Shown piece by piece: positions 1 to 24,051 of a stretch of DNA of 56,946 nucleotides; the first letter of the stretch is position 1, and each line of letters begins with the position of its first letter. Made by a program: the position numbers and the translations under genes. The notes beneath the pieces are model-generated. The model was given only the letters and a program-made list of their open reading frames with translations. It had not been told where the DNA came from and ran no database searches. The stretch lies in sequence record SRR20825019_2015. One strand, given 5' to 3'.

Positions 1-396
1 GGGTGGCACAAAACGAACCGAAGTATCCAGGAAGAGCTAGATGAAGTTTTCGGGAGTACGCCCGATTTCGAGGATGAGGAAGACGAATGGAAGGAACAGG
101 GATTACCAAACGGCGACAATGGGTTTGCCACAGGGGTTACCTATGAAGAACTGACTGCCGTGGGGGCATTGCTCCGGCAAGACGTGCTGGAACCTGCCTC
201 GCAGAAAAAAGCGGTGGATATCGTTCAGCGATTACAAGGAACCGATTTGTTCGGCCTTTTGGAAAACTCAATGGAAGGGGCTTCACGAAAGATTGCGGAG
301 CTGTTGGACAGGAGCCTCCCCACCGGGACAGATTCTGGTTCTTCCGATTTGCGGAAAAATGATTTGGGTGATTTTGACATTGGGGAGTTTGTGTGA
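1..396 (+). CDS. traD: Conjugative transposon protein TraD, 3' part (runs off left edge)
   Basis: Frame 1 is open from base 1 (…EELDEVF…GFATGVTYEELTAVGALL…GTDLFGLLENSM…DFDIGEFV*). Resembles Bacteroidota TraD and lies upstream of traE. Confidence 0.75.
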   Translation, partial: GWHKTNRSIQEELDEVFGSTPDFEDEEDEWKEQGLPNGDNGFATGVTYEELTAVGALLRQDVLEPASQKKAVDIVQRLQGTDLFGLLENSMEGASRKIAELLDRSLPTGTDSGSSDLRKNDLGDFDIGEFV

Positions 397-410
397 GCAA
401 ACTCCCTTTT
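383..410 (+). terminator. Intrinsic terminator overlapping the traD stop
   Basis: GGGAGTTTG (383-391) / CAAACTCCC (398-406) stem followed by TTTT. Confidence 0.7.
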
Positions 411-451
411 GTCTATTAAAATGTAAATAGTTCAATTCCTGAGGATTTTTA

Positions 452-3400
452 TCAGATATCCTTTAATGGATTGTTTTCACTAAAATCATCATTCCTTAAG
501 TTAAACCTGACATCTAAAAACTCCTTTATAGCTTTAAAATTGGGTGTCATCAATTTGGTTTCCAATCCGTAGGTGTTGAGTATAGATGGTAAACCTATAT
601 TGAACTGGTCAATAAATTCTTTTGATTGGAAAGCTTCAAGTGGAAACTGGACATAACAATCTTTTTCGTCCATATCCATATACTCGTAAAGTTTCTTTTT
701 TAAATGATCCACATATTCTTGCTCAGTATTGAATTCTTTACTCTCAAAACGCTGTACTTTGTAATTAATCATAAAGTTCTGCATATTCATCAATATCTGC
801 CAATCTTTATACCCCTGATTTCTTAAAGTGTTTAACCATGAAGGGAAATCAGGTAGCTTCTTAAGTTCCTCCAATGTGATGTATATGCATTTTTGCATAT
901 TATTAAAGCGATTTTCAATGGCTTCAATACTAAACGCCTTATCGTATTTTGTACTTAAAGAACTATCCCAGACCATTACGTTGTTTTCTTTTGGAAAATC
1001 CAGGTTTAACTTCTCTTTTTCAAAAGACGGAGCTTGAAATGCATCAAAATCTTCTTTAACATAAATATCTCTGTGTATTTTTTGATAAAGGTTAATAGCA
1101 ATCTGTTTTGTATCAAGCTTTGATTTTTTGAAGAATTTCCAAAATAATTCCTCAAATTCTTTTGAACGCAGAACACTAATATTATCCAATATAAGTCGTA
1201 GGGAAACCATATTAAATGCAGAATGTTGATTAATCTTTTCAGCACCAATAGCATCAGAATAACAGATATAAACCTTCCATTTTATAACTTCATTAGAAGG
1301 GAGTTGCTCAGGGGGAAGATATTTGTCACTTAAAATTAGCTCTATTTCAATGGTTGATTTGAGTAAATGGAAATCAACATCAGATAACGCAATTTCTGCC
1401 AGAACCGTCTGGATAGCTGAAATATATTCCTCTGCAATGGAGCGTGTTTCAAATGTATTATTAAAACTGACACACCATAAGCTACCTAAAGCGTAAAAGC
1501 GAATTGTACATTCTTTTCCGATATCGTTAAGTGGAAAATCATCAACGTGTCTTTCGATCGCTCTGTTATAACTGTCTTCTGACTGCAATTCTGAATCTAT
1601 TCTTTCTTGTATAGGTTTGATTATTTCGCTTCCCACATAATCAAGGGACCTGACATAGTTTTCGATTAAATAATTAAATTGGTGGGAACTTCGGTTCATC
1701 ACATATAACATAAATGCCATATCCAGTGTGACCTTGCTTTCCATTTCGGAATCAGTTTGGTCGAAATTAGAATCCAATCTTAAATGAATGTATTTACTAT
1801 AAACATTAAGAGCACTGAACCATGAACCTTGTCTGAAATCGGAATAAAACAACAAGGCTAAGCTATTTTCCGTTCTTTTTATCAACTCTTTATTGGTGCT
1901 CATTCTAAACGCAGCTAATGCGTAGTTCTTGGCAGCAAAATGCATTCCTATTGAATTATAGAGTTGTGCAATATTTAACAACGCTAATATAAAACCTTCA
2001 ATAGTGTCTTCCTGCAAGTAGTTATCCTTAGCCTTATGAAAATAATCCAATGCTCTCAGAAGGTTTTTCGGAACCGTGGTATTCAAATAACTATATCCTC
2101 TTTTTATCTGTGTTTGAGCAAGTTTTACCTTACCCTCTCTTTTTTCAACTAAAGGGAATAGATTTTCAGAGAAATCTTCCAATGATGCTATAATGCCCAT
2201 TTCATCTTCAGGATCTACATTGAGTTGCATTTTGATATATTTTTCTATTCTATCCCCAAATTGAGATAGTTTGAAAAGGGGAGCTTGCTCAACCAAAGTT
2301 AAAATCTCATCAAAATACTGTATAAACTCGATATTGCTTTTATTTCTTAATCTGTTTACACCTAAGAGGAAAGTGCCTTTCTGTTCAAGTAAATTACATT
2401 TTTCACTAATGTCCCTTTCGATCCGTAATTTTTGATTTATCTTCGCGTAAAGACGAATAAACCATTTTCTCAACTCATCTTCACCGATTAATGATTTCCC
2501 ATTTTGGGAAGCAACGAATACTAAACTGATAATATTATGGGCATTTTCTATGTCTGTTGCGGTGTTAAAAAAATTAAAGTCGCTAAAGTAGTACCGGATG
2601 TCTTCTTCAAATCCTAATAGACTTCCATCAGGTCGCTTACGAACAGCCAGATTTTCATAATCCACTTCATAAAACTCATTGTTGAGGAACACTATTTCAT
2701 AAATGGCCTTTCTCCTGAAGGGTGGATCTATTTCTATATTTCTTGCATAATAAATAAGGAAAGGATTCCAAATATCTTTGTGTTTATGCAAATACTTTTT
2801 TCTACGGCAATAGTTTGTCAGGTCTAAAATTTCATAAAACTCTCCAATTCTGAATTCGTCTATAGGTTCAATTGTTTTATAGTAGTCATATCTACCTGAA
2901 TACCATTTATCATCATTGTCGCCAATTGAAAGTAAATTTTGTTCTAATTGATCGTAAGTCAATTTTCGCTCTTCGCCTAACTCTTTATTAATCACCATAA
3001 AAACGGTATCGAGCAGCGCCCCGAACACCTGTACCGAATTGCTTTCAACTGTGTCGTAAGGTAGTTTCTGTATCAGTAGTTCTATATTGGCTTTTGTGGA
3101 AGAGAATTCATTATTGGGCGAAGTTCCAACAAATTTCCATTTTATCATTTTTGTAAATTCTTTCCAAAAAGCCCCTTCTAATTGTTCGAATATATCAGCC
3201 GCTTCTTTCAAACTACCTACATCTTTCAAAGCTTTTTTTTGCTCTTCTATATACTCGGTTACTATGTCTTTTACTTTCTGTGCGTACTTAGCGAGTTTCT
3301 CCTCGTCCAATTGATCCTGATATTCAAACCATTCTCTTAGCAGATCAGCATCGTTATCTAAATATTTCTGCGCAATATTAGTGTTGGTTTCAAAAACATA

Positions 3401-3712
3401 TTCTTTTGAGAAGTCATTGTAATCGGATTTTACATGAAGTGTAAAAAAATGGCAAATACACTTTTTAATTTCCTCACTTGAAAAAGAGAAGTTACTGGAG
3501 TAAAGTTTTATTTGGCGAAAAGTGAGTCTTTGTGCCAACAAGTCCTTTTGAAAGATATCCTCTTCAAATTCGCAATAAATATTTTCTTTAATATCGTTAA
3601 GAAAATTATCGATCCAGGTTTCGAGAGTCTTTAATGTCTGATAATTGTATCCCCGTTGAGCAGCAAATGCATCAGTGTTTTTTGAGAATAAGAAAAGCTT
3701 GTTTAATTCCAT
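452..3712 (-). CDS. Large putative defence protein: N-terminal Cap4/DUF4297-like PD-(D/E)xK dsDNA nuclease domain plus long helical/TPR-like region
   Basis: N-terminal motifs DAFAAQRGYNYQ…EFEEDI…FRQIK; TPR-like LRALDYFHKAK…ALLNIAQLYNSIGMHFAAKNYALAA; no Walker A seen. Start set at ATG 3712, 7 nt after the sduA stop (ORF track starts at 3742). Confidence 0.7.
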   Translation of the reverse strand: MELNKLFLFSKNTDAFAAQRGYNYQTLKTLETWIDNFLNDIKENIYCEFEEDIFQKDLLAQRLTFRQIKLYSSNFSFSSEEIKKCICHFFTLHVKSDYNDFSKEYVFETNTNIAQKYLDNDADLLREWFEYQDQLDEEKLAKYAQKVKDIVTEYIEEQKKALKDVGSLKEAADIFEQLEGAFWKEFTKMIKWKFVGTSPNNEFSSTKANIELLIQKLPYDTVESNSVQVFGALLDTVFMVINKELGEERKLTYDQLEQNLLSIGDNDDKWYSGRYDYYKTIEPIDEFRIGEFYEILDLTNYCRRKKYLHKHKDIWNPFLIYYARNIEIDPPFRRKAIYEIVFLNNEFYEVDYENLAVRKRPDGSLLGFEEDIRYYFSDFNFFNTATDIENAHNIISLVFVASQNGKSLIGEDELRKWFIRLYAKINQKLRIERDISEKCNLLEQKGTFLLGVNRLRNKSNIEFIQYFDEILTLVEQAPLFKLSQFGDRIEKYIKMQLNVDPEDEMGIIASLEDFSENLFPLVEKREGKVKLAQTQIKRGYSYLNTTVPKNLLRALDYFHKAKDNYLQEDTIEGFILALLNIAQLYNSIGMHFAAKNYALAAFRMSTNKELIKRTENSLALLFYSDFRQGSWFSALNVYSKYIHLRLDSNFDQTDSEMESKVTLDMAFMLYVMNRSSHQFNYLIENYVRSLDYVGSEIIKPIQERIDSELQSEDSYNRAIERHVDDFPLNDIGKECTIRFYALGSLWCVSFNNTFETRSIAEEYISAIQTVLAEIALSDVDFHLLKSTIEIELILSDKYLPPEQLPSNEVIKWKVYICYSDAIGAEKINQHSAFNMVSLRLILDNISVLRSKEFEELFWKFFKKSKLDTKQIAINLYQKIHRDIYVKEDFDAFQAPSFEKEKLNLDFPKENNVMVWDSSLSTKYDKAFSIEAIENRFNNMQKCIYITLEELKKLPDFPSWLNTLRNQGYKDWQILMNMQNFMINYKVQRFESKEFNTEQEYVDHLKKKLYEYMDMDEKDCYVQFPLEAFQSKEFIDQFNIGLPSILNTYGLETKLMTPNFKAIKEFLDVRFNLRNDDFSENNPLKDI

Positions 3713-3719
3713 ATGCAAA

Positions 3720-4925
3720 TTACATTTTTTGAATTTGCCCAATCGTGAAATCTAATCTTTGAAGTAAGTCATCATAGGTAATAACGTCGATAACATTTTT
3801 ATACTTCCGTTTTACTATTTCAAAGTCACTTTTCTGTTCATCACTGAGGTTAGTTTCCCTTCCCATAATTACGAAGCCTTTAGGGTTTATAATTTTAATC
3901 TTCAGCCCATCAGGTAGATTATCCTTGTATTTTTCTGTTAACTTTTTCTCGCCAGTTTCCCCATATCTATTGAGATGGAATAAATACTTTTCAAGCTGCA
4001 TTATAGTGCCAATCAAATCTTTATGTGGAGTATAGTTGCCTCTGTACACGGAGTGGGTCATTATTGAGTTTTCAAATGGTTTCTTGATTTCTATAACGTC
4101 CACATTACCATTGCCGTCAACCAACATAAAATCCAAGAAGCGACGTCGTCTGTCATCGATTTTTAAGTGAACAGTTTTAAACGAACAAATGTACTTTGGA
4201 TTAAGCAGTAGGATTATTTCAAGAATTTCATTTTGCCATTGGTTTTCGCTATATCCATTTTCGCTTTCCAACATCCCTCTGAGTTTCTCTTGTATGGTGC
4301 GAAACTTCAGCAACTCATATTCCTGGAACATTTTTGCCAAATTCTTCCCTCGCTTTGAGCTTTTCTTGTTCAAATAATTTTGGAACTTCAATTCCGCGTC
4401 AGTAGTAGAATCAAAGTAGTTTTTTATAATCGTTGAAATTCTTGCCTCTGAATACAGCTTCTTTTCATAAGTAGTGGGAAATTCGCCTATCATTTTCACA
4501 AAGGCTTCAAGGGGGATATTGCTTTCTGAATTACCACTGATATACACGTCTTCATTTACAAGTTCATCAATCTGTTTTAATATAGAAATATTAGTTTCCG
4601 CAATCAAATACTCCGATTGAATATCAATTTCTTTATGAAAATAAAAATCATTTTTTGTCCCTATTGTATCTTTTCGTACTTTGTAGTAGTCTCCTTCTAA
4701 TTCAGCAAATACAAACCCTATTGGTGGAAATTCTTCGAAGAAATCCTCATAATCACTATTTTCTTCAACTTGAATCTCGTACTCTTCATGAGCTTTAAAA
4801 GTCAGTGTCTTTTTAAACGTAACTTCCTTTTTTTCTTTTAGATTTTCACGTACCCAATCTCTGCCAATATATTCAGATATATAATAGACAAAAATAATCT
4901 TGCCTTTGATTTTCCTAAACTCCAT
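3720..4925 (-). CDS. sduA: Shedu immune nuclease SduA (DUF4263) with N-terminal extension
   Basis: SENQWQ…LDFMLVDGNGNVDVIEIKKP…QLEKY…NPKGFVIMGR…VITYDDLL motifs typical of DUF4263. Confidence 0.88.
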   Translation of the reverse strand: MEFRKIKGKIIFVYYISEYIGRDWVRENLKEKKEVTFKKTLTFKAHEEYEIQVEENSDYEDFFEEFPPIGFVFAELEGDYYKVRKDTIGTKNDFYFHKEIDIQSEYLIAETNISILKQIDELVNEDVYISGNSESNIPLEAFVKMIGEFPTTYEKKLYSEARISTIIKNYFDSTTDAELKFQNYLNKKSSKRGKNLAKMFQEYELLKFRTIQEKLRGMLESENGYSENQWQNEILEIILLLNPKYICSFKTVHLKIDDRRRRFLDFMLVDGNGNVDVIEIKKPFENSIMTHSVYRGNYTPHKDLIGTIMQLEKYLFHLNRYGETGEKKLTEKYKDNLPDGLKIKIINPKGFVIMGRETNLSDEQKSDFEIVKRKYKNVIDVITYDDLLQRLDFTIGQIQKM

Positions 4926-4932
4926 TTCTTAA

Positions 4933-6975
4933 TTATTGAACATTGATTATTTCCCATTCTTCCCTATTTATGGCTCCCAATAAAGTATCAAACCTATCTT
5001 TATGTATTCCAATACATAGTAAATCTGTAGGACGTGAAAAACCAACATACGCCATTTTTGCAGATTGCTTTACCCTTTCTCCTATATTTCCAAACTGAAT
5101 CGGATTTCCCAAAAATTGCTCAGCTAATCTTTGGGATTCATAAGATTTTGCATTTGCTCCATTGCCGTCTTTTTGAAAGTACGATTCTAAATATAAGGTT
5201 GCACAATGCGTTTGCCCTTTTACTGCGTGAACACTTGTAATTTCAATTTCAAGCCCATCTTCCTTGTAATGATTGGCCGTTTCTATTTCTTCTGCATCAA
5301 CTATGGGAGTTTCAATTACATCATCATTGATGAATGCTAAACTTGCTGAAAGCTCTTTATCAGAAAACATCCCAAGAAAATTCGGGCTGTATGTTTTAAT
5401 TTCGTTCCACACATCATTTGTCTTTCCTTTAATTACTTCGATTGACCAATTGTAGAGATTTAGATTTAGCTCCTCATACTTTTGAGAATCCATTTCTCTG
5501 ATAAACTCAATCAGTTTTTTCTTTGTGTAGGGTCGATCATCAGAAGTATTTATGTTTTCAAGACGCAAAATTTTCAGAAAAGCATTGAGGATATTTTTTC
5601 GCAATGGTTCTAATGTCTTTTTGTTTTTATCATAAAACAGTAAATAGCTTTTTAGGCAACTGTAATCTTGCTTGGGCTTACTTTTTTCCTTTTCAAACCC
5701 CTTGTGATAATCTTCTAATCTGAGTTTGGCTATATCTTGCCGACTGGTATCATCATTTTTCCATTCCGTATTCCAGCAAACAACCTTAACTGATTTGGTG
5801 GGATTGGTTAAGTTGCCATTCTCCTTGTGTTTCTTTACTATTTGGGCAAAATGAGGAATAACATTCGTGATTGTTACATTTTCAAACAGCAAAATATGAG
5901 GCTTTACAATACATTCATTCAGTCCGACTATATCAAAATCGGCACCATTGTAAAGAGCGAACTTTTTCACCACGGCAGCGATTTGTTTGCTAAGGCGTTG
6001 GCTACCGCTCAATTTTAAAACAGTTTCCCTGTCGACCCATACGTCAGAAGCCTTAACGGAATTATAGATAGCCTGATTTTTATCTCCAATTCGTTGGATT
6101 TTAGAATTGCTATTACCTTCATCATAGAATATTTTTTCTAACAAGTTATACTGGTGGGTATCCATGTCCTGCATTTCATCTACAAAAACAAAAGAAAAGC
6201 GTTTTTGCAAAATTGTTTTAATAGCAGGAATCTTGTCCAAGTAAACATTAGCTAAGAAGTAGGCGTCGTCAAAATGCAATGCACCTTCCTTTTGCATTAT
6301 TACGTATTTGAACTTAACCAGCCATTCTCGGACTCTTTTTTTTTCATCATCTGAGAAATCCTGCCAATTCCTACCTCTTCTTGGTTTTATGATTTGTAAT
6401 TCATTCCCATTAATGGAGTTTATTAACTGTGTTTCATTATTTTGATAAGTCAATCTAAAGGAAAATTGGCAATTATTCCCGATTAGAAAATACTTGGCGT
6501 TTTTCTGTTCTTGAGTTGTAAAACCTCTTAAATTGAATTTTAAATGTTTGTTTATTGCTTCATCATATATTTCGTTATCTATTCTATTTGGTTTTCTTTT
6601 AAATTTTGAAATGTAAAATGGAATTGCCAAAAATTCATCAACAAAACTCTGTATCGTTCCAATAAAATTCGGGTAAGAAAAAAGTTTGGGACAATGCTTC
6701 TGAATTTTTTCTTTAATCTCGTCAATAGCTGCATTGGTATGAGATAAAACCAAAATCCCAGAACCATCAGAAAAAGGGAGCTTCCTTTCCAGAATAAGTA
6801 ATTTTGCCAATAAAGCCGTAGTTTTCCCACTTCCGGGGACTGCTTGCAAATCGATTGTATTGAGGTTACGAATAAATGTTCTTCGTTCTTTTTCATCGAA
6901 CTCCTTGCCTTCAGGAAGCAATATCTTTTCGGCATAGCGAATATCATCGTCCGTTATGTTAGTTTCCTGCAGCAT
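4933..6975 (-). CDS. gajB: UvrD-family helicase, Gabija GajB-like
   Basis: AVPGSGKTT (Walker A), LSHTNAA, FVDEMQD, IGDKNQAI, SVHAVKG, YVGFSRP; overlaps the upstream OLD nuclease gene by 17 nt. Confidence 0.85.
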   Translation of the reverse strand: MLQETNITDDDIRYAEKILLPEGKEFDEKERRTFIRNLNTIDLQAVPGSGKTTALLAKLLILERKLPFSDGSGILVLSHTNAAIDEIKEKIQKHCPKLFSYPNFIGTIQSFVDEFLAIPFYISKFKRKPNRIDNEIYDEAINKHLKFNLRGFTTQEQKNAKYFLIGNNCQFSFRLTYQNNETQLINSINGNELQIIKPRRGRNWQDFSDDEKKRVREWLVKFKYVIMQKEGALHFDDAYFLANVYLDKIPAIKTILQKRFSFVFVDEMQDMDTHQYNLLEKIFYDEGNSNSKIQRIGDKNQAIYNSVKASDVWVDRETVLKLSGSQRLSKQIAAVVKKFALYNGADFDIVGLNECIVKPHILLFENVTITNVIPHFAQIVKKHKENGNLTNPTKSVKVVCWNTEWKNDDTSRQDIAKLRLEDYHKGFEKEKSKPKQDYSCLKSYLLFYDKNKKTLEPLRKNILNAFLKILRLENINTSDDRPYTKKKLIEFIREMDSQKYEELNLNLYNWSIEVIKGKTNDVWNEIKTYSPNFLGMFSDKELSASLAFINDDVIETPIVDAEEIETANHYKEDGLEIEITSVHAVKGQTHCATLYLESYFQKDGNGANAKSYESQRLAEQFLGNPIQFGNIGERVKQSAKMAYVGFSRPTDLLCIGIHKDRFDTLLGAINREEWEIINVQ

Positions 6976-8776
6976 ATTTGATAGCTTTTAAAAGGTAATT
7001 GACAGTGTCATTTTCATCATTTGCTGTAATTTGAATTGTCTTTACGGCAATTTCATCTTTTTCAAATTTGATCAAATCTTCATCAATAGCATTTGCTATA
7101 TGGTAGGCAATTCCAGTCTTTTTCAACCCTTTGTTTATCAGTTTTTCAGCGAGCGCTTTTTCAAAATCTGCATTCCAATCAGTTCCTGTATGAATGGCTT
7201 TTGCCGCGTCTTGAAACACTGCTGTTAAACATAGTGATTTGAACAATGAATATTCTAAAGTCCAGTTTGGTGCAGGAAAGTACTTAACATTTTGTTCAGC
7301 TTTTGCATTTATAGCTGCTATTTTTTGCAGTGTTTCTGCCTGAACAATGTCCGCATCTCTTTTTACATAATCACCTTCATTCTTTTCGTATTCTCTTATG
7401 TCGGCATCTGTAATCACAGCTACCGGAATTGTCATAAGAGGTTCTGTATTCCGTAGGTAAATATTTGAGTAATGGTCAAACCCTGTATGCCCGATATTTA
7501 CAACCGAAACTCCTTTTTCCGTCAGATTGATTCCAATAGCTTTTGCAATACTTGGAATGAGGATTTCTTCTGCCCACCCCTCAACTAAAATCACACCTTT
7601 AGCGAAAAACAAGTTTGCTTTCGTGGTGTCAAGAAACTTTTCTAAAAACTTGTAGTTGTCTTTATCTAGTTTAGTATGTCCTTTTCCCATTGGAAAAGCA
7701 TTATCGTTATTGCAAATAATCAGATTTTCAAGTTTTAGTTTGGAAGCTAAATTGGGGCTGTGTGTAGTTAGGATAAGTTGAATAGCATCTTGTTTTTGAA
7801 AAGCCTCTATTACCTGCATTTGTGCTTGTGGGTGCAGGTGTGCTTCCAGTTCTTCCACTAATCCTAAGCGCAAGCCACTCCAATTTGATTTGTTCAGGTG
7901 AAGTAGTTCGGCAGCCATAAATAATCGGTTTAATGTTCCCAATCCAGGATTGGGTTCGTCTTTCAGGAACAAAGCTAGTTTTTCAAGTATGCTTTTTATA
8001 TCATTTGAGGAAGCATTAAATTCAGTTTCGTAATTGTTGCCGTAGAAGCCTTTGATGTAGCCGTCAATCTTATCTTTTATTTGTTTGCCTTCCTGTGGTT
8101 TAATTGTTTGCTCTTCACCTGCCTCATCAATCGCCTTGGTTTCAAATTCACCTTTAAAATAGTTTTCTAAATCAACTTTGAGACCTGAGAAAATATGTAC
8201 TAATTCATTCGTGTCTTCTTTTCCCTTAAAAGCCTCATCTCCCAAAAGAATTTGCGATAATCTTGAATTGCGTTTGGCAATCAATTCATTTTCAGCATCT
8301 CTCAATGGCTTCAAATAGGTTGCTTTCAGGTATTCTTTTGCTTCTGCGGTAAGCAAGTAGCCGTCATCGTCAACTCCCGCTTTTATATCAGCAGGTAATA
8401 TTTTTTTGGCTTGCCTTCTTACATCATAATTTATTTTCAAAAAGGGTTTTATTTCATCCCCTACACCTGTCCACCCTAACCATTCTGTGAAGTTTTTGGC
8501 TTCGTTAGGTGTTAAGTCCTCAAAAGTCAGTTCTATTCGAAAGCGGTTCTGTGCCGCGTAAAAGTCTTTATCTTCAACTCTGATATAATCATAGCTATGA
8601 GTTTTCAGAACAAGTTTTATAGCATCAATAATGGCAGTTTTGCCTGAATCGTTTTCTCCAATAATCACATTCAACCCTTTGGTTAGGTCTAAATTCAAAT
8701 TCGGTTTTTTGAGCTCCATTTCGCCCTCAGTACCAAATTTTCTGAAATTCCAAATTTTTATATTGGATAGGTACAT
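6959..8776 (-). CDS. gajA: OLD-family ABC-ATPase/TOPRIM endonuclease, Gabija GajA-like
   Basis: IWNFRKF, GENDSGKT, VEELEAHLHPQAQ, TTHSP, TOPRIM LVEGWAE and TDAD; paired with UvrD. Confidence 0.88.
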   Translation of the reverse strand: MYLSNIKIWNFRKFGTEGEMELKKPNLNLDLTKGLNVIIGENDSGKTAIIDAIKLVLKTHSYDYIRVEDKDFYAAQNRFRIELTFEDLTPNEAKNFTEWLGWTGVGDEIKPFLKINYDVRRQAKKILPADIKAGVDDDGYLLTAEAKEYLKATYLKPLRDAENELIAKRNSRLSQILLGDEAFKGKEDTNELVHIFSGLKVDLENYFKGEFETKAIDEAGEEQTIKPQEGKQIKDKIDGYIKGFYGNNYETEFNASSNDIKSILEKLALFLKDEPNPGLGTLNRLFMAAELLHLNKSNWSGLRLGLVEELEAHLHPQAQMQVIEAFQKQDAIQLILTTHSPNLASKLKLENLIICNNDNAFPMGKGHTKLDKDNYKFLEKFLDTTKANLFFAKGVILVEGWAEEILIPSIAKAIGINLTEKGVSVVNIGHTGFDHYSNIYLRNTEPLMTIPVAVITDADIREYEKNEGDYVKRDADIVQAETLQKIAAINAKAEQNVKYFPAPNWTLEYSLFKSLCLTAVFQDAAKAIHTGTDWNADFEKALAEKLINKGLKKTGIAYHIANAIDEDLIKFEKDEIAVKTIQITANDENDTVNYLLKAIKYAAGN

Positions 8777-8847
8777 CTATAATCTTTTAGTAAGTAGGTT
8801 ATATAGTGTACTAAGATATGCATTAATTATTTCAAACACCTTTCACC

Positions 8848-8944
8848 GCCAAACTCTTCCTCTGACAGTCACTTTGTTAGACTACCTCATTTTCCATGAC
8901 ACCTTTGTTGCTAAACCCGCAGGGAGCGGGAAAGTAGCAACAAA
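8848..8944 (+). promoter_or_regulatory. Putative traE operon promoter/operator region
   Basis: GCCAAAC-containing motif at 8848; -7-like CACCTTTG (8900-8907); inverted repeat TTTGTTGCTA (8904-8913) / TAGCAACAAA (8935-8944) enclosing CCCGC/GCGGG. Confidence 0.45.
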
Positions 8945-8960
8945 ATAATTCAGTTAAATC

Positions 8961-9263
8961 ATGGAAAAACGAACAAAAAAAGTACTGCTGACAGGGATGG
9001 CATTGCTCACAGCGTTAAGCGTATTTGCCCAGGATGGTGCCGCAGGCATCAACGAGGCGACCCAAATGGTAACATCCTATTTTGAACCTGCCACACAGCT
9101 TATCTATGCCATTGGTGCGGTGGTCGGATTAATCGGGGGTGTAAAAGTGTACAACAAATTCAGTAGCGGAGATCCCGACACCAGTAAAACAGCAGCAAGT
9201 TGGTTTGGTGCCTGTATTTTCCTGATCGTGGCCGCGACCATCCTACAGGCTTTCTTCCTATAA
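8961..9263 (+). CDS. traE: TraE (DUF4134), VirB2/pilin-like
   Basis: GINEATQMVTSYF…GAVVGLIGGVKVYNKFSSGDPDTSKTAASWFGACIFL. Confidence 0.92.
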   Translation: MEKRTKKVLLTGMALLTALSVFAQDGAAGINEATQMVTSYFEPATQLIYAIGAVVGLIGGVKVYNKFSSGDPDTSKTAASWFGACIFLIVAATILQAFFL

Positions 9264-9274
9264 TCCCTTGCCTT

Positions 9275-9607
9275 ATGAGTAATTACAATATCAATAAAGG
9301 TGTTGGGAGAACGGCAGAGTTTAAAGGGCTTAAATCCCAATACCTGTTCATCTTCGCCGGGGGCTTGCTTAGCGTGCTTATCCTTGTCATGATTATGTAC
9401 ATGGCGAGCGTAAGCTCTTATGTGTGCCTGTTTATAGGAATCGGTGGAGCATCGCTCATCGTATGGCAAACATTCGCACTTAATGGCAAGTATGGCGAAC
9501 ATGGGCTCATGAAGCTTGGTGCCAAGAAAAGGCATCCGAAGTACATCATCTGTCGCAAAGCCGTACACCGATACTTAAAGTCCACCTCAAAATCCCGTCC
9601 CTTATGA
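9275..9607 (+). CDS. traF: TraF (DUF4133), VirB3-like
   Basis: YNINKGVGRTAEFKGLKSQYLFIFAGGLL…KYGEHGLMK; start set at ATG 9275. Confidence 0.9.
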   Translation: MSNYNINKGVGRTAEFKGLKSQYLFIFAGGLLSVLILVMIMYMASVSSYVCLFIGIGGASLIVWQTFALNGKYGEHGLMKLGAKKRHPKYIICRKAVHRYLKSTSKSRPL

Positions 9608-12111
9608 GAAACACAGGAAGAGCCACAACGCTTGAAAGCAAGTTTCCATTACTGGCGGTGGAACACCACTGCATCCTTTCAAAGGATGCGGACATTACGG
9701 CTTGCTTCCGGGTACATCTGCCGGAACTGTTTACGGTGGCATCGGTGGAGTACGATGCTATTCATTCAGCATGGCACAAGGCGATCAAGACCCTGCCGGA
9801 CTATTGTATTGTCCACAAACAGGATTGGCACATCAGGGAAAGTTATACCCCGGATATGGCACAGGATGACCAGAGCTTTTTGTCGAAATCCTACCAACGG
9901 CATTTCAATGAACGTCCTTTTCTAAATCACTATTGCTATTTGTTCCTGACAAAAACAACCAAAGAGCGGTTGCGAATGCAGAGCAATTTCTCATCGCTTT
10001 GCAAAGGAGTGTTGATCCCAAAGGAAATCAGGGATAGGGAAACGGTGCACAACTTTATGGAATCGGTGGCGCAGTTTGAGCGCATCATCAATGACAGCGG
10101 TTTTGTTAAGCTGGAACGCCTCACGGAAGATGACATCATCGGAACAGGAGACCAACAGGGACTATTGGAACAATACCTGACTTTATCGCGGGATGCCAAC
10201 ATGCCCATGCAGGATATCGCCCTCGGTGCGGAAGATGTGCGTATCGGTAACAAAAGGCTGTGCCTGCACACCCTGTCCGATACGGACGACCTGCCCGGAA
10301 CGGTATCGGCAAATATCCGTTACGAAAAACTGTCCACCGACCGCAGTGATTGCCTGTTGTCCTTTGCTGCCCCGGTAGGGTTGCTATTAAGCTGCAACCA
10401 CATTTACAACCAGTATCTGTTTTTGGACAACAGCGATGAAAACCTGCGCAAGTTTGAGAAATCCGCACGGAACATGCACTCGCTGGCAAGGTATAGCCGG
10501 GCGAATCAGATCAACAAAGAGTGGATTGAAAAGTATCTCAATGAAGCGCACAGTTTTGGGCTTTCATCCATACGGGCACACTTCAACGTCATGGCATGGT
10601 CGGATGACCCTCATGAACTGAAGCAATTGAAGAATGATACAGGCAGTGCCCTTGCTCTAATGGAATGCAAACCAAGGCATAACACCGTTGATGTTGCTAC
10701 GCTATATTGGGCGGCAATGCCTGGCAATGCCGGCGACTTTCCGAGTGAAGAAAGTTTTTACACCTTCATGGAACCGGCATTATGCTTTTTCACGGAGGAG
10801 ACCAACTATCAAAGTTCGCCCTCACCGTTCGGAATTAAAATGGCTGACCGATTAACGGGAAAGCCCATCCATTTAGATATTTCCGACCTGCCCATGAAAA
10901 GGGGCATTATCACGAACCGAAACAAGTTCATTCTTGGGCCGTCAGGTTCGGGTAAATCTTTTTTCACCAACCACATGGTACGTCAATACTACGAGCAGGG
11001 CGCACACGTGCTGCTCGTGGATACAGGGAACTCGTATCAGGGTCTGTGTGAATTGGTTAAAGGAAAAACCAAAGGCGAAGACGGGGTATATTTTACCTAT
11101 ACCGAGGACAACCCGATAGCCTTTAACCCTTTCTATACGGACGATGGCGTGTTCGACATCGAGAAGCGGGAAAGTATCAAGACCTTGATACTAACGCTTT
11201 GGAAACGGGATGATGAGCCACCAACCCGTTCGGAAGAAGTAGGGCTGTCCAATGCCGTAAGCGGATATATCGAACGCATCAGGCAAAATGATGAATACCC
11301 CTGTTTCAATGGTTTTTATGAGTATGTAAAAGGCGACTACAAAAAGGTGCTGGAAGAAAAACAGGTACGGGAAAAGGATTTCGACCTTTCCAATTTCCTG
11401 AACGTGCTGGAGCCCTACTATAAAGGTGGAGAGTACGATTACCTGTTAAATTCCGATGAGCAACTTGACCTGCTTTCCAAACGCTTTATCGTCTTTGAAA
11501 TTGATGCCATAAAAGACCACAAAATTCTGTTCCCCATTGTGACCATCATCATAATGGAGGTCTTTATCAATAAGATGCGCAGGTTGAAAGGAGTCCGCAA
11601 GCTCATACTGATTGAAGAAGCGTGGAAGGCCATTGCCAAAGAAGGCATGGCGGAATACATCAAGTATCTCTTTAAAACGGTCAGGAAATTTTTCGGGGAA
11701 GCCATAGTCGTAACCCAGGAAGTGGACGACATTATCCAATCGCCCATTGTCAAGGAAAGTATCATCAACAATTCCGATTGCAAGATCCTTTTGGATCAGC
11801 GCAAGTACATGAACAAGTTCGATGACATCCAGGCGATGCTCGGACTTACGGAAAAGGAAAAATCCCAAATCCTTTCCATCAACATGAACAATGACCCGTC
11901 AAGGCTTTACAAGGAAGTTTGGATTGGCTTAGGTGGTACGCATTCAGCAGTCTATGCCACAGAAGTTTCAATTGAGGAATACCTCGCCTACACCACTGAA
12001 GAAACCGAAAAAATGGAGGTCATGCAACTGGCATCCGAACTGGACGGCAACGTGGAACAGGCCATAAAGCGCATCGCCCTCCAAAGACGGGAAAAAGCAA
12101 ATAATTATTAA
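9604..12111 (+). CDS. traG: TraG conjugation ATPase (VirB4-like)
   Basis: GPSGSGKSF Walker A, IEEAWKAI Walker B, KTVRKFFGEAIVVTQEVDDI. Confidence 0.96.
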   Translation: MRNTGRATTLESKFPLLAVEHHCILSKDADITACFRVHLPELFTVASVEYDAIHSAWHKAIKTLPDYCIVHKQDWHIRESYTPDMAQDDQSFLSKSYQRHFNERPFLNHYCYLFLTKTTKERLRMQSNFSSLCKGVLIPKEIRDRETVHNFMESVAQFERIINDSGFVKLERLTEDDIIGTGDQQGLLEQYLTLSRDANMPMQDIALGAEDVRIGNKRLCLHTLSDTDDLPGTVSANIRYEKLSTDRSDCLLSFAAPVGLLLSCNHIYNQYLFLDNSDENLRKFEKSARNMHSLARYSRANQINKEWIEKYLNEAHSFGLSSIRAHFNVMAWSDDPHELKQLKNDTGSALALMECKPRHNTVDVATLYWAAMPGNAGDFPSEESFYTFMEPALCFFTEETNYQSSPSPFGIKMADRLTGKPIHLDISDLPMKRGIITNRNKFILGPSGSGKSFFTNHMVRQYYEQGAHVLLVDTGNSYQGLCELVKGKTKGEDGVYFTYTEDNPIAFNPFYTDDGVFDIEKRESIKTLILTLWKRDDEPPTRSEEVGLSNAVSGYIERIRQNDEYPCFNGFYEYVKGDYKKVLEEKQVREKDFDLSNFLNVLEPYYKGGEYDYLLNSDEQLDLLSKRFIVFEIDAIKDHKILFPIVTIIIMEVFINKMRRLKGVRKLILIEEAWKAIAKEGMAEYIKYLFKTVRKFFGEAIVVTQEVDDIIQSPIVKESIINNSDCKILLDQRKYMNKFDDIQAMLGLTEKEKSQILSINMNNDPSRLYKEVWIGLGGTHSAVYATEVSIEEYLAYTTEETEKMEVMQLASELDGNVEQAIKRIALQRREKANNY

Positions 12112-12130
12112 TCACAAAAAATTAGAAATT

Positions 12131-12763
12131 ATGAAAAAAACAATGTTACTGGTGTTTACTGTACTTATGCTTGCCGTTGCACCATCCGCTAAGGCACAAT
12201 GGGTCGTGGTTGACCCTTCAAACCTTGCCTCGGGTATTATCAATTCCGCAAACGAGATTGTACAGACCTCGTCCACCGTATCCAACGTGATCAAAAATTT
12301 CAAGGAAGTGGAAAAGGTATATAAACAGGGTAAGGAATATTACGATAAACTCCAAGCCGTAAACAACCTGGTGAAAGATGCCCGCAAGGTTCAACAGACC
12401 GTTTTGCTCGTGGGCGATGTATCCGAAATGTACGTCAATAATTTCGGCAAGATGATGAACGATCCCAATTTTTCGCCACAGGAATTATCGGCAATCGCCA
12501 ACGGGTATTCTGCACTGCTCAATGAAAGTACCGAATTGCTGAAAGAGTTGAAACAGATCATAACCTCGACCTCTCTTTCACTGAACGATAAAGAGCGTAT
12601 GGATATCATCGACAAGGTGTACAACGAGGTCAAGGATTACCACAGTCTTGTGCGCTATTATACCAATAAAAACATTTCAGTCAGCATTTTAAGGGCAAAA
12701 AAGCAGAACAACACCCAAAGGGTATTGGAGCTGTATGGCACTGCTGAACAAAAATACTGGTAG
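12131..12763 (+). CDS. traI: TraI (DUF4141)
   Basis: Signal peptide, AQWVVVDPSNLASGI, SLNDKERMDIID; lies between traG and traJ. Confidence 0.88.
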   Translation: MKKTMLLVFTVLMLAVAPSAKAQWVVVDPSNLASGIINSANEIVQTSSTVSNVIKNFKEVEKVYKQGKEYYDKLQAVNNLVKDARKVQQTVLLVGDVSEMYVNNFGKMMNDPNFSPQELSAIANGYSALLNESTELLKELKQIITSTSLSLNDKERMDIIDKVYNEVKDYHSLVRYYTNKNISVSILRAKKQNNTQRVLELYGTAEQKYW

Positions 12764-12768
12764 GAGCT

Positions 12769-13764
12769 ATGGAATGGGATAATCTTCATGAACTCCTGCG
12801 TTCGCTGTACGATGAAATGATCCTTATGTCTGCGGATATGGCAGCAGTGGCCAAAGGTATTGCCGGATTGGGAGCTCTGTTCTATGTTGCCCTAAAGGTA
12901 TGGCAGGCACTCAGCCGGGCAGAACCGATTGATGTGTTCCCGCTCTTACGGCCTTTTGCCATCGGGCTTTGCATTATATTTTTCCCAACCATCGTATTGG
13001 GAACCGTCAATGCGGTATTAAGGCCGGTGGTACAGGGCACCCACGGGATGCTCGAAAATGAGGTACTTGACCTGAACCAGTTACAGGCACAGAAAGACCA
13101 GTTGGAAAGGGAAGCCATGCTCCGCAATCCCGAAACAGCCTACTTGGTAAGCGATGAGAAATTTGACAAGAAACTGGACGAATTGGGATGGTCACCCTCT
13201 GATCTGGCCACAATGTCAGCGATGTACCTTGGCAGGCAAAGCTATAAGATAGAGAAAGCGATAAAGGAATGGTTCCGCAATCTGTTGGAAATCCTTTTTC
13301 AGGCTGCGGCACTCGTCATAGACACGATACGGACCTTCTTTCTTATTGTACTGTCCATCTTGGGGCCGATAGCATTTGCGATAAGTGTTTGGGATGGTTT
13401 CCAATCCACGCTTACGCAATGGCTCACCCGGTACATCAGTGTGTACCTGTGGCTGCCCATTGCCGATATGTTCAGTTCCATGCTCGCCAAGATACAATCC
13501 CTGATTATCGAAAGGGATATTGAGATGCTCTCAGACCCGACTTTCATTCCCGATACTTCCAATACCGTGTACATCATTTTTATGATTATCGGCATCGTAG
13601 GCTACTTCACCATCCCCACTGTAGCAGGCTGGGTTATCCAGGCCGGAGGTGGAGGAAACTTCATGCGCAATGTGAACCAGACAGCCTCTAAAACAGGGAA
13701 TATCGCAGGAGCCGGAACGGGAGCTACTGTGGGCAACATCGGAGGAAAATTAATGAACAAATAA
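12769..13764 (+). CDS. traJ: TraJ (VirB6-like membrane protein)
   Basis: GIAGLGALFYVA…AEPIDVFPLLRPF…WLTRYISVYLWLP…PTVAGWVIQAGG. Confidence 0.93.
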   Translation: MEWDNLHELLRSLYDEMILMSADMAAVAKGIAGLGALFYVALKVWQALSRAEPIDVFPLLRPFAIGLCIIFFPTIVLGTVNAVLRPVVQGTHGMLENEVLDLNQLQAQKDQLEREAMLRNPETAYLVSDEKFDKKLDELGWSPSDLATMSAMYLGRQSYKIEKAIKEWFRNLLEILFQAAALVIDTIRTFFLIVLSILGPIAFAISVWDGFQSTLTQWLTRYISVYLWLPIADMFSSMLAKIQSLIIERDIEMLSDPTFIPDTSNTVYIIFMIIGIVGYFTIPTVAGWVIQAGGGGNFMRNVNQTASKTGNIAGAGTGATVGNIGGKLMNK

Positions 13765-13776
13765 ACATTGGTAGAA

Positions 13777-14400
13777 ATGGAATTTAAGACTTTAAGAAAT
13801 ATTGAAAACAGTTTCAGGCAAATACGGCTGTATGCCATCGTATTTGCCGTACTCTGCACCAGCGTGGTAGGATATGCCGTATGGCAATCCTACCACTTTG
13901 CAGAATTGCAACGGCAAAAGATTTATGTTTTGGACAATGGCAAGTCGTTGATGTTGGCACTTTCACAGGATGCGAGCATTAACCGTCCTGTGGAAGCCCG
14001 TGAACACGTAAGGCGTTTCCATGAACTGTTCTTTACACTGGCCCCGGACAAGCGTGCCATCGAGAGCAATATGAAACGGGCATTCAACCTTGCCGACAAA
14101 AGTGTATTCGACTATTACAAAGACCTTTCGGAAAAGGGGTACTACAACCGCATAATATCAGGCAATGTACAGCAACGCATCGAAGTGGACAGTGTGGTCT
14201 GCAACTTCAACACCTATCCCTATGCCGTCAGGACGTATGCCAAGCAATATATCATCCGTTCGAGCAATTTGACAAGACGGAGCCTGGTCACATCCTGCTA
14301 TCTCGTGAATTCCGTCCGCTCGGACAACAATCCACAGGGCTTTAATATCGAGAAGTTCAGCGTACTGGAAAACAAAGACGTGGAAGTTATAGAACGCTAA
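13777..14400 (+). CDS. traK: TraK (VirB8-like)
   Basis: MEFKTLRNIENSFRQIR…EAREHVRRFHELFFTLAPD…RSDNNPQGF. Confidence 0.94.
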   Translation: MEFKTLRNIENSFRQIRLYAIVFAVLCTSVVGYAVWQSYHFAELQRQKIYVLDNGKSLMLALSQDASINRPVEAREHVRRFHELFFTLAPDKRAIESNMKRAFNLADKSVFDYYKDLSEKGYYNRIISGNVQQRIEVDSVVCNFNTYPYAVRTYAKQYIIRSSNLTRRSLVTSCYLVNSVRSDNNPQGFNIEKFSVLENKDVEVIER

Positions 14401-20546: not shown

Positions 20547-21356
20547 TCAGGCAACTTTTAGGGGATGGGTGGTAAAATCTTTCAGGTTGTGGAAAAATCC
20601 CCTGTACGGTGTCAATCCGTTGCGGAACAATCCCCAAAGTAAAGAGCAACCCATTTGTGTCAATGAGGAGTTGATAAATAAGTCCTGTTTTTCCAAGGCT
20701 TCAACCAGACTACAACTTGGAGTACCGTCCTGCTCTTCGGATTGCTTCAGCAGTTCGCCAAATTCTTCGGTAACGAATGGCAGGCTTGCCACCGTTTCGT
20801 ACTTTTCGGATTGGGGTTGCTGTATTTCCCCAATAGTAGATAACAATACTTGCCCTGTGTACTGGCTGTTGCCAAAGTCCAACCAATATTTGGGGTTATC
20901 CCTGTAATTCCTGCGGTCACTTACTTCTTTCAGTATCTCGGCAACGCCAAACCTTGCCTGTACATTATCCACGCAAGTAATGGTAAGGGTCGCCCTGGCT
21001 TCTTCGGGTACTTGTCCGAAATTATCCTTTTCAAACTTTTGGGTTTCGGCTTTCCAGTTAGTCCCCGAAAAACGGTTGGCTCGGTTTATCAGTGCCACGG
21101 ATTTGTACAATCCTGTTTCACATTCCGCAAAACGCTGTCTGCCCAAATTAGCACTGGTAATCCTATCATCATCCCAAAGACGGACTTGCAATCCTGCGTG
21201 TCCCAATTCGATTAAACTATGGTTCATTTCCATTAAGGCAGTCAACACCTTTGAGCCTGTGCCACCCGCTCCGATAAGGTTTACCGAAATCGGGTTGGTA
21301 GGGCTTATGAGATAGTTGTCCGTAAGATGGACTGCTGTTTTTTCTGTATTCATCAC
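20547..21356 (-). CDS. PRTRC system ThiF/E1-like protein
   Basis: LIGAGGTGS, DDDRITSANLGRQ, TCVDN, WLDFGN, PSCS (candidate catalytic Cys). Confidence 0.92.
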   Translation of the reverse strand: MMNTEKTAVHLTDNYLISPTNPISVNLIGAGGTGSKVLTALMEMNHSLIELGHAGLQVRLWDDDRITSANLGRQRFAECETGLYKSVALINRANRFSGTNWKAETQKFEKDNFGQVPEEARATLTITCVDNVQARFGVAEILKEVSDRRNYRDNPKYWLDFGNSQYTGQVLLSTIGEIQQPQSEKYETVASLPFVTEEFGELLKQSEEQDGTPSCSLVEALEKQDLFINSSLTQMGCSLLWGLFRNGLTPYRGFFHNLKDFTTHPLKVA

Positions 21357-22075
21357 AATAGATTTTTAAGGGTTTTGTTGTTCTTTTTCAATACCTCTTT
21401 GGGAAAAGGTTTATCTGTACCGACCAGTTCTTTCCATACATTTACACAATTCCCTTTTATGGGGCTGTGGCTTCCCAATAAATGGCTGAAATAGCTGTTA
21501 AAAAAGTAGTCTTCCCATGCGGTTGTAAATTCCTCGACCGAAGCCGAATTTTTGATGTCAATATTTACAGTCCCCATACATACGTTGCCGTTCTCATATA
21601 CATTGAAAAATGGGGCATAATGCAAGGGTGTGTTTTCGGTGGGTCGTCTGTCGCTTTTCAACGCAAATACGTAAAGGGTGCTTTTGCTTGCCAACCAAAG
21701 CATTGGGGGTATTTGTGCCTTTCCGTTGGGGATGCCCAGACCGTTCACAAAATACAGTTGCTTTTGCTGTGCTTTGGTGTACCACAGTACCGTTCCTTTT
21801 TTGCTCGGATTGATATGCAGGATGTTGGTCGGTAAAATCCCCTTCGGCTTTAAAAAGGCTTTGTTCCTTTCTTCACTGGTCTGTAAGGACTTTGCCAATA
21901 CGTTGGCTTCTTTTACCGTTAATGGGTGCGCATTGATAGGGTTGCCGTCTTTGTCCATATCGAAATGCTCCACGTACATATCGGTTTCCGCTGCTTTGGT
22001 CTGATAGAATACCAATGCGGATTTTGGATGGTACAATTTGCCGAAATTCTCGGTTATGTCGTTAATATTGTTCAT
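21353..22075 (-). CDS. PRTRC system protein B (prokaryotic E2-like)
   Basis: LHYAPFFNVYENGNVCMG, WEDYFFNSYFSH. Confidence 0.9.
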   Translation of the reverse strand: MNNINDITENFGKLYHPKSALVFYQTKAAETDMYVEHFDMDKDGNPINAHPLTVKEANVLAKSLQTSEERNKAFLKPKGILPTNILHINPSKKGTVLWYTKAQQKQLYFVNGLGIPNGKAQIPPMLWLASKSTLYVFALKSDRRPTENTPLHYAPFFNVYENGNVCMGTVNIDIKNSASVEEFTTAWEDYFFNSYFSHLLGSHSPIKGNCVNVWKELVGTDKPFPKEVLKKNNKTLKNLL

Positions 22076-23241: not shown

Positions 23242-23257
23242 TCTTTTGATTTTTAGT

Positions 23258-23476
23258 TTAACCTTTCGTACCCATTACGCTTTCAAATCTGTACTCGACC
23301 GCATCGTCCTTGATTTGTGGTGCAGATACTTTTGCAGTCGTCAAAATCGGGTACATATTGGCGTAATAATTCATCACGGCTTCCACGCTCCAACGTGCTT
23401 CGGGGTCGGTCAATCTGATGTCCTGTCCTTTATCTTTGAGTATAAAAACTCGCTCTAATTGCGTTGCTAATAACAT
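23258..23476 (-). CDS. PRTRC system protein C (prokaryotic ubiquitin-like)
   Basis: 72 aa: LERVF…LTDP…SVEAVMNYYANMYPILTTA…GTKG-COOH. Confidence 0.92.
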   Translation of the reverse strand: MLLATQLERVFILKDKGQDIRLTDPEARWSVEAVMNYYANMYPILTTAKVSAPQIKDDAVEYRFESVMGTKG

Positions 23477-23493
23477 AGTTCCTTAATTTAGGG

Positions 23494-24030: not shown

Positions 24031-24051
24031 TGCTTTAAAATTTTAATGTGT

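Follow-up and report, generated by a model that had tools for sequence, protein, structure and literature searches.

The stretch of DNA analysed here, 56,946 nucleotides (nt) from sequence record SRR20825019_2015 and referred to as the window over its whole length, carries at positions 452-8776 four co-oriented genes encoding both proteins of a Gabija defence system, a Shedu nuclease and a large fourth protein that is named P4 here. The question raised by this locus is whether such a tightly packed block constitutes one cooperating defence unit, as had been proposed in the initial annotation, or a stack of separate systems. The results described below make it probable that the block consists of three separable nuclease-based immune modules (Gabija, Shedu and the candidate P4) stacked in the cargo slot of an integrative and conjugative element (ICE), and not of one machine; mechanistic cooperation is neither demonstrated nor required by any of the results. 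The four genes, with protein lengths in amino acids (aa), are as follows.

6959-8776, minus strand: gajA, OLD-family ABC ATPase and TOPRIM nuclease of Gabija, 605 aa
4933-6975, minus strand: gajB, UvrD-type helicase of Gabija, 680 aa, its start overlapping the end of gajA
3720-4925, minus strand: sduA, Shedu nuclease with a DUF4263 C-terminal domain, 401 aa
452-3712 from ATG (452-3742 from TTG), minus strand: P4, 1086 aa from the ATG

Open reading frame (ORF) calling returned all four genes intact and co-oriented on the minus strand. The gajA and gajB frames overlap by 17 nt (6959-6975), and gaps of 7 nt separate gajB from sduA (4926-4932) and sduA from P4 (3713-3719), which confirms the spacing initially described with P4 beginning at the ATG at 3712. 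This start is the most likely one from the sequence since the family consensus MxIxKLxIFSKNTD matches MELNKLFLFSKNTD; initiation at the TTG at 3742 would instead turn the sduA/P4 junction into a 23-nt overlap. The block is also AT-richer than the transfer (tra) genes around it, as had been noticed, with GC contents of 0.332 (P4), 0.334 (sduA), 0.345 (gajB) and 0.365 (gajA), that is 0.33-0.37, vs 0.51 for the gene in the traD position, 0.47 for traE-F and 0.469 for traG. The absence of any obvious internal terminator was borne out: the terminator-like hairpins found on the minus strand within the block have weak 5-bp stems, and their number (6) is at the level of shuffled sequences (6.4 +/- 3.1). 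The layout is compatible with a single transcript. No full match to the Bacteroides-type -33/-7 promoter motif (TTTG-N17-23-TAnnTTTG) was obtained upstream of gajA; the -7 motif TAnnTTTG alone occurs 6 times in the block vs 4.06 +/- 2.0 in shuffled sequences, which is chance level, and a sigma-70 promoter scan was uninformative, giving shuffle-level matches. One TAnnTTTG match lies at 4989-4996 (minus strand), inside gajB, some 70 nt before sduA begins. An Rfam scan of window positions 1-9700 at E <= 0.1 and a megablast search of the same positions against plasmids both returned no match.

The first three proteins were readily recognized using the defence models of PADLOC v2.0.0. GajA matches the GajA model PDLC00099 over residues 1-604 (E 1.4e-227, 755.6 bits) as well as the Pfam families AAA_15 (6.6e-25) and OLD-like_TOPRIM (3.8e-17), both above their cut-offs; it carries a Walker A motif (GENDSGKT) at residue 40 and the segments LVEGWAEE and ITDADI, which we take to be the TOPRIM glutamate and DxD motifs. 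GajB matches PDLC00146 over residues 5-679 (E 1.8e-280, 930.5 bits) and Pfam UvrD-helicase (9.6e-27), with a Walker A motif (AVPGSGKT) at residue 45 and the segment DEMQD, presumably the catalytic motif. SduA matches PDLC00388 over residues 2-400 (E 8.5e-144) and Pfam SduA_C over residues 225-388 (E 7.4e-36, 124.2 bits for a cut-off of 27), and its residues D265, D276, E279 and K281 show no variation among 49 sequences. Judged by their sequences, there is nothing unusual about GajA and GajB as Gabija proteins or about SduA as a Shedu protein. The attribution of the OLD and UvrD genes to Gabija and of the DUF4263 gene to Shedu therefore stands, and the PADLOC check that had been suggested for the block matched these three proteins over their full length, leaving P4 unmatched.

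The block is located in a mobile element. The traE gene that adjoins it is followed by traF (DUF4133) and traG (TIGR03783, 1646.1 bits), both on the strand opposite to the block, then by DUF4141, CtnDOT_TraJ, Transposon_TraM, DUF4138, TraO and TraQ_transposon genes up to 18403. PRTRC-type genes (ThiF, Prok-E2_D, PRTRC_E) followed by DUF932 and SSB occupy 20547-24384, and a tyrosine integrase is encoded at 26831-28096. Because the Bac_Flav_CT TraG ATPase, the Tra gene set and the tyrosine integrase are all present, the element is classified by its gene content as a CTnDOT-type conjugative element of Bacteroidota, which adjoins chromosomal genes. The initial placement of the block, antisense between traD and traE, was upheld for the strand and for traE, which is identified by its DUF4134 domain; traD is named by position only. 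The gene at 1-396 gave no Pfam or NCBIfam match; its positional counterparts in two related elements, those of Pedobacter sp. ASV28 (locus L021) and Flavobacterium sp. ST-119 (locus L007), share 64% and 43% identity with it, respectively. The features delimiting the slot are listed below.

1-396, plus strand: 3' part of the traD-position gene, named by position alone
382-407, plus strand: terminator-like hairpin with an 11-bp stem (arms GGGGAGTTTG...CAAACTCCCT, then a T-rich tail on the plus strand), placed where the traD-position gene and P4 converge
3735-8889, minus strand: gajA-gajB-sduA segment, an indel of ~5.15 kb relative to L021 (blastn)
8777-8960: intergenic region separating the divergent gajA and traE, presumed to hold the promoter of the block
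8961-9263, plus strand: traE (DUF4134; Pfam DUF4134 1.5e-39), first gene of the traE-traQ run

Comparison of this slot between the three elements carries much of the argument. In both L021 and L007, P4 (74% and 61% identical to that of the window, respectively) is the sole gene between traE and the traD-position gene, as established by tblastn. Alignment of L021 with the window by blastn pairs 9043-9852 with 9698-8890, 9979-13259 with 3734-454 and 13722-14090 with 396-28; window positions 3735-8889 are replaced by 126 nt in L021, and the gajA-gajB-sduA segment is therefore a single indel of ~5.15 kb, for which gain and loss are both possible. A search for transposon-type flanking repeats or insertion scars around 3735-8889 returned only short, chance-like repeats. 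The traE-side intergenic region aligns along its length in the window, L021 and L007 with a mean column identity of 64%, the window keeps the final 22 nt that precede the P4 start, and in each of the three ICEs P4 has a higher AT content than the tra genes. P4 is the resident gene of the traD/traE slot in these related elements. Since gajA-gajB-sduA lies between the conserved divergent intergenic region and the retained 22-nt leader of P4, a single upstream region probably drives the whole set of four genes. A short hairpin (CCCGC-N5-GCGGG) is present in the intergenic region at 8916-8930 (plus strand), ~30-45 nt upstream of the traE start; it is kept in L021 and shows a compensatory change in L007 (CCTGC...GCAGG), and may serve to regulate the tra operon or the divergent promoter.

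The surroundings of P4 were then surveyed in a set of 75 loci (one genome per species), in which the window proteins were searched by tblastn over 10-kb flanks. SduA of the window type occurs within 10 kb of P4 in one locus (L017), where it is non-adjacent, and Gabija-like genes in three (L048, L054 and L059), those of L048 being convergent with P4; a GajA-only partial match was obtained near P4 in L005. The commonest neighbour family is found in 9 of the 75 loci, mostly from Hymenobacter. Tra-protein matches were likewise obtained in 9 loci, the other 66 having no window-type Tra match within 10 kb. Simple ORF calling allowed evaluation of the upstream ORF in 63 loci: it is co-oriented with P4 in 48 (within 50 nt in 21, representing at least 9 different families) and divergent in 15, for which an own P4 promoter is presumed on account of this orientation; SduA is adjacent to P4 in none of the 63. 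Those closely spaced upstream genes that match a family include GajB (L059), Avs4 (L067), AbiEii (L017), a DUF4365 protein (L005, L009) and the last member of a Wadjet-like set with MksE and JetC matches (L003, L032). Of the 131 immediate neighbours scanned, 19, from 18 loci, gave PADLOC matches at E <= 1e-10; the scan left out 10 of the 141 neighbours, namely a 2090-aa protein on account of its size, P4 fragments and the neighbours in L073 and L074, two downstream ones being identified later as LmuC. P4 is a defence-island gene without a fixed partner, because the systems found upstream over the 75 loci are varied and unrelated, and it commonly closes a tightly spaced run of genes in the same direction, whatever lies upstream.

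Two further proteins of these surroundings were recorded separately. A 533-535-aa protein lies 3-37 nt upstream of P4 in L002 (8390-9997), L004 (8362-9963) and L011 (8390-9997). In L004 the gene before it is HerA, and in L002 an LmuB-like ATPase and a type I R subunit come before it; it has no Pfam or PADLOC match and may be another uncharacterised defence gene. An ORF of 163-167 aa begins 2-13 nt after P4 in L017 (13273-13767), L018 (13281-13781), L020 (13283-13774) and L022 (13283-13786); it is conserved in one P4 subclade (P4 ~39% identical to that of the window) and is absent from the window.

The surroundings of Shedu relatives vary as well. Relatives of the window SduA at 31-44% identity were detected on six plasmids, and those nearer to it in sequence frequently have a contig in common with GajB or P4. 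Among five plasmid SduA loci, three are solo (31-39% identical), one stands beside genes resembling those of a cyclic oligonucleotide-based antiphage signalling system (CBASS), and one is nested in a bacteriophage exclusion (BREX) system between pglX and pglZ with overlaps of 4-8 nt. None of the five has an OLD-type ATPase, a UvrD helicase or a P4-sized gene annotated in flanks of 5-6 kb, no search for GajA, GajB or P4 having been made there. According to the available text of Gu et al. (bioRxiv 10.1101/2023.08.10.552793), 602 of 5,499 Shedu genes are located inside restriction-modification (RM) systems and 87 inside BREX. The neighbourhood analysis in that text, its supplements lying outside the text searched, mentions Gabija 0 times. 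The proposal that tight coupling denotes a cooperating unit was consequently not supported: P4 stands alone in the L021 and L007 slots, has no conserved partner in the 75 loci and is equally packed behind unrelated systems, and relatives of the window SduA are solo or lie within BREX.

The nature of P4 itself was addressed by structure prediction and profile searches. An AlphaFold2 model of the full-length protein, built on 88 sequences (predicted local distance difference test (pLDDT) 89.6, predicted template modelling score (pTM) 0.77), displays an alpha/beta domain at ~19-195, an all-helical part at ~200-722 and a C-terminal domain at ~725-1086 that combines alpha/beta and helical elements. 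The N-terminal part matches Pfam Cap4_nuclease (PF14130) over residues 27-177 at E 5.6e-4 and 20.6 bits, below the cut-off of 26.2, and its relatives P0371 and P0392 reach the same family at 35.2 and 34.4 bits. Foldseek searches of this part against the Protein Data Bank (PDB) returned LmuA (9nxx_D, E 1.2e-4; 9hr5_C), HerA-DUF4297 (9c1m_G) and Cap4 (6wam_F, 6vm6_E), and those of the middle part returned tetratricopeptide repeat (TPR) proteins (LGN). Residues E50, D52, Q67 and K69 are invariant in the 88 sequences and would form a PD-(D/E)xK site. On the grounds that relatives pass PF14130, that Foldseek gives these matches and that the four residues are invariant, the N-terminal domain is assigned to the Cap4/DUF4297 PD-(D/E)xK nuclease superfamily and P4 is a predicted nuclease. 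The description of the fourth protein as a nuclease-TPR protein is accordingly supported by the modelled fold, with LmuA, Cap4 and HerA-DUF4297 for the nuclease and LGN for the TPR part; the Pfam Cap4_nuclease match of the window protein is weak.

P4 has no PADLOC v2.0.0 or NCBIfam match. No Walker A motif is present, a loose P-loop pattern occurring in just 4 of the 88 relatives, the protein matches no AAA, STAND or other NTPase family, and residues 195-733 have no beta-strands in the model. Modelled alone, the C-terminal domain reaches a pLDDT of 91.2; its model has no Foldseek match in the PDB at E <= 0.001 (the best is an aminopeptidase N family protein, E 0.019, TM 0.19), and residues 720-1086 have no usable look-alike in the ESM Atlas. 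The P4 profile gave nothing below E 0.078 against PDB sequences. A word-indexed protein search yielded 176 relatives, nearly all of ~1085-1100 aa, many of them with a precomputed PF14130 match; every name given by the source is that of a Bacteroidota organism or a metagenome label, and the closest relative, 97% identical, lies on a 28-kb contig. A literature search found no paper joining DUF4297, TPR and defense, and one on Cap4 nuclease and tetratricopeptide found, in the text available to it, just papers on Hachiman and on Avs/STAND.

The body of P4 is shared with a second family. A profile of the C-terminal domain matches 962 representative clusters (clustered at 50% identity) at E <= 0.001, many of which are ~975-990 aa long (proteins P0413-P0511). 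These sister proteins share the P4 body of ~800 aa (residues ~266-1086 of the window P4) with an hhalign probability of 100% (E 6e-123) and a BLASTP identity of 25-29% over 800+ residues. Their first ~186 residues differ from those of P4 and contain an invariant GP..GGDQG.DFE...C...K pattern; the N-terminal 239 residues have no Pfam match at E <= 10, and the profile of the family found nothing meaningful among PDB sequences. At the sequence level, the two families have thus kept the body and exchanged the N-terminal domain.

A number of results weigh against three separable modules and have to be considered together. In Empedobacter brevis, GajB (AS589_07980, 75% identical), SduA (AS589_07985, 73%) and P4 (AS589_07990, 79%) bear consecutive locus tags, so that a second genome has the GajB-SduA-P4 order. 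Further recurrence was looked for with three proteins (P4, SduA and GajB), the best 120 matches being listed for each, by means of contig fingerprints, that is equal 'longest contig' values in two protein lists; the resulting counts are lower bounds, and a fingerprint is no proof of adjacency on large contigs (220-440 kb). P4 and SduA have at least 6 fingerprints in common (8345, 8769, 3794924, 219925, 439975 and 430828, of which 219925 and 439975 belong to Elizabethkingia anophelis and 430828 to Chryseobacterium indologenes), SduA and GajB at least 4 (15982, 9256, 14200 and 3794924), and P4 and GajB at least 2 (7577 and 3794924). This suggests further GajB+SduA and SduA+P4 co-occurrences. In a FastTree phylogeny of 83 sequences, SduA-linked P4 proteins are found on several branches, down to 53% identity, interleaved with verified solo P4; this scatter points either to co-inheritance over a long time or to association on repeated occasions, and in both cases the combination could bring a functional benefit. 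Another Gabija subtype is directly upstream of a distant P4, at a 21-nt gap, in L059 (5352-12352, Parapedobacter deserti), where GajA (PDLC00083, E 1e-270), GajB and P4 are co-oriented without Shedu; this Gabija is 24-26% identical to that of the window and the P4 37%. No recognised promoter motif was found upstream of gajA, and a Shedu nuclease can act with an upstream partner, as in the two-component KELShedu described in the accessible part of PMC12577705.

The most probable of the alternatives is a smaller functional unit, either a two-gene SduA+P4 system or a three-gene GajA-GajB-SduA variant of Gabija moving as a cassette. The SduA/GajB and P4/SduA fingerprints speak for it, as do the single gajA-gajB-sduA indel relative to L021, the precedent of two-component Shedu (PMC12577705, as far as its text was accessible) and the way in which the identities to the window fall together in linked pairs, at 75/75/73/64/59% for SduA and 81/79/79/66/53% for P4. 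Fingerprints on contigs of 220-440 kb, however, leave adjacency unproven, SduA is adjacent in none of the 63 evaluable P4 loci, and the four closest P4 relatives (97%, 86%, 86% and 84% identical) share no fingerprint with SduA or GajB among the matches listed. With Gabija also not mentioned in the neighbourhood analysis of Gu et al., within the text noted above, such a unit is considered unlikely.

A single integrated system, in which SduA and P4 would be activated by Gabija or would back it up, for example when it is inhibited by a phage, with non-additive protection as the outcome, fares less well and is judged quite improbable. Tight spacing, the single upstream intergenic region, the Empedobacter brevis order, the Gabija placed directly upstream of P4 in L059 and synergy between co-localised defence systems, as reported in the portions of the literature consulted, are all in its favour. 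They are opposed by the solo P4 of the equivalent slot in L021 and L007, by the 71 of 75 P4 loci without a Gabija-like match and 74 of 75 without SduA within 10 kb, by L048, in which Gabija is convergent with P4 and therefore not in one operon with it, and by the other contexts in which SduA relatives occur. Cyclobacterium amurskyense (P4 86% identical) and Echinicola marina (84%) moreover have no counterpart among the named SduA and GajB matches listed (best 120, most rows being nameless). A prediction of a complex between P4 266-1050 and SduA 1-215 scored 0.00 and gave no answer, which is evidence neither way. The suggested test of whether homologs keep the four-gene order thus had a mixed outcome, P4 having no conserved partner in 75 loci and GajB-SduA-P4 recurring in Empedobacter brevis; the view that the genes are not purely chance neighbours is partly borne out by the consecutive genes of Empedobacter brevis. 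Least probable of all is P4 as a non-immune housekeeping or competition factor of the ICE (a nuclease for transfer, exclusion or maintenance) that shares its slot with defence genes, since its position inside the tra region of the window, L021 and L007 and the Tra matches in 9 of 75 loci are outweighed by the 66 loci without a window-type Tra match within 10 kb, the typical defence genes that neighbour P4, its AT-rich cargo composition compared with tra genes, a nuclease domain nearest to LmuA, Cap4 and HerA-DUF4297, all immune effectors, and a sister family that keeps the body and swaps the N-terminal domain, a pattern frequent in immune sensors.

Under the preferred reading of three stacked modules, the locus would operate as follows. 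P4 would be the slot resident, with gajA-gajB-sduA sitting between the divergent promoter region and P4. The Gabija module would act as a GajA/GajB complex cleaving DNA, and the Shedu module as a tetrameric nuclease kept in check by its N-terminal domain. In P4, if LmuA, Cap4 and Avs are a guide, the ~800-aa helical and C-terminal body might sense an infection cue or otherwise regulate the protein and release the N-terminal nuclease, probably via oligomerisation. The benefit would be a layered and largely independent protection of the host and of the element, with modules gained or lost over the time that ICEs take to diverge; co-inheritance of the combination in part of the lineage would reflect either mere linkage or a selective advantage of layered nucleases.

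Gabija and Shedu being ordinary, the composite operon would mostly represent defence-gene stacking, and the main interest of the locus lies in P4, which is conserved, confidently modelled, associated with defence islands and unrecognised by defence and family libraries, its Pfam match being sub-threshold. If P4 protects against phages, it would constitute a new single-gene system together with a new sensor scaffold devoid of NTPase. A further proposal, to which we give slightly less than even credence, is that P4 represents a large undescribed class of NTPase-less one-protein sensor-effectors, with a 962-cluster body and interchangeable nuclease domains, and is the anchor gene of a promoter-sharing ICE slot in which further systems are inserted between promoter and anchor; in its boldest form, the SduA-P4 or Gabija-P4 adjacency would denote functional coupling. 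The ICE comparison also offers a model of layered immunity in which new modules enter the tra cluster between a promoter region that stays in place and the gene already resident there, and hence a concrete, testable account of how defence operons may be assembled and spread among Bacteroidota.

The rest of the window, outside the element, was annotated as well. The interval 30270-56367 comprises a resistance-nodulation-division (RND) efflux set (OEP, AcrB-type and HlyD-type) and a polysaccharide utilisation locus with two glycoside hydrolase (GH) 92 genes, a GH76 gene, SusC/SusD/SusE-like genes, a ROK kinase, a major facilitator superfamily (MFS) transporter, a GntR regulator and a GH2/PA14 protein. 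A tRNA scan of the whole window returned none, and hence no attachment site was identified by that route.

The block can finally be compared with known systems. Gabija is a GajA/GajB complex that cleaves DNA (references quoted in PMC13069673). The window pair agrees with it in its ATPase, TOPRIM and UvrD domains, gene order and overlapping frames, and the proteins themselves show no difference; the window operon, for its part, continues directly into two more nuclease genes. The text available for PMC13069673 classifies operons holding two defence systems as well as a GajA-less 'type II Gabija', and Shedu and Cap4 are not mentioned in it. Shedu is described, in the accessible portions of two reports (bioRxiv 10.1101/2023.08.10.552762 and 10.1101/2023.08.10.552793), as a tetrameric nuclease restrained by its own N-terminal domain. 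The window SduA, with its full-length PDLC00388 match and conserved nuclease-domain residues, is tightly packed among defence genes in the manner of RM- or BREX-embedded Shedu and of the Methylomonas plasmid case; the surrounding operon differs, consisting in the window of Gabija and P4.

P4 is akin to the Cap4 effector of CBASS in its nuclease superfamily, as indicated by the weak PF14130 match and by Foldseek (6wam_F, 6vm6_E). It was rejected as a Cap4 effector proper: no SAVED/CARF-like domain was found by Pfam, by PADLOC or in the model, and no cyclase gene among the neighbours. It is related to Lamassu at the N-terminus, where 133-161 residues show 34-38% identity to the LmuA proteins of two Firmicutes loci recovered with that domain, L073 (10001-13975, Clostridium sporogenes) and L074 (9962-14239, Paenibacillus tengchongensis), both LmuA-LmuC-LmuB operons by PADLOC. 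These LmuA proteins measure 470-510 aa vs ~1086 aa for P4, whose ~800-aa body has no sequence relation to anything in the PDB. P4 was likewise rejected as LmuA proper, the window block having no LmuB or LmuC, and most P4 loci lack the LmuB SMC-like ATPase or LmuC alongside: over the 131 immediate neighbours scanned, LmuB adjoins P4 just in L069, on the opposite strand, and an LmuB-like gene lies two genes upstream of P4 in L002. Avs and other STAND proteins resemble P4 in their general plan, with the effector nuclease at the N-terminus followed by a long stretch of helical repeats, and in N-terminal swaps between sister families; they differ from it by their NTPase, and P4 was discarded as an Avs/STAND NTPase given the lack of a Walker A motif and of any NTPase family match and the all-helical nature of residues 195-733.

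Defence systems on ICEs are documented in general (PMC10201445, in the text accessible), and a literature search for defence hotspot cargo of ICEs or of Bacteroid- elements returned, in the text it covered, general surveys and no paper describing the slot seen here. The window slot resembles ICE defence hotspots in holding AT-rich defence genes at a fixed position, with a content that varies between related elements, and differs from them in lying within the tra cluster of a CTnDOT-type element.

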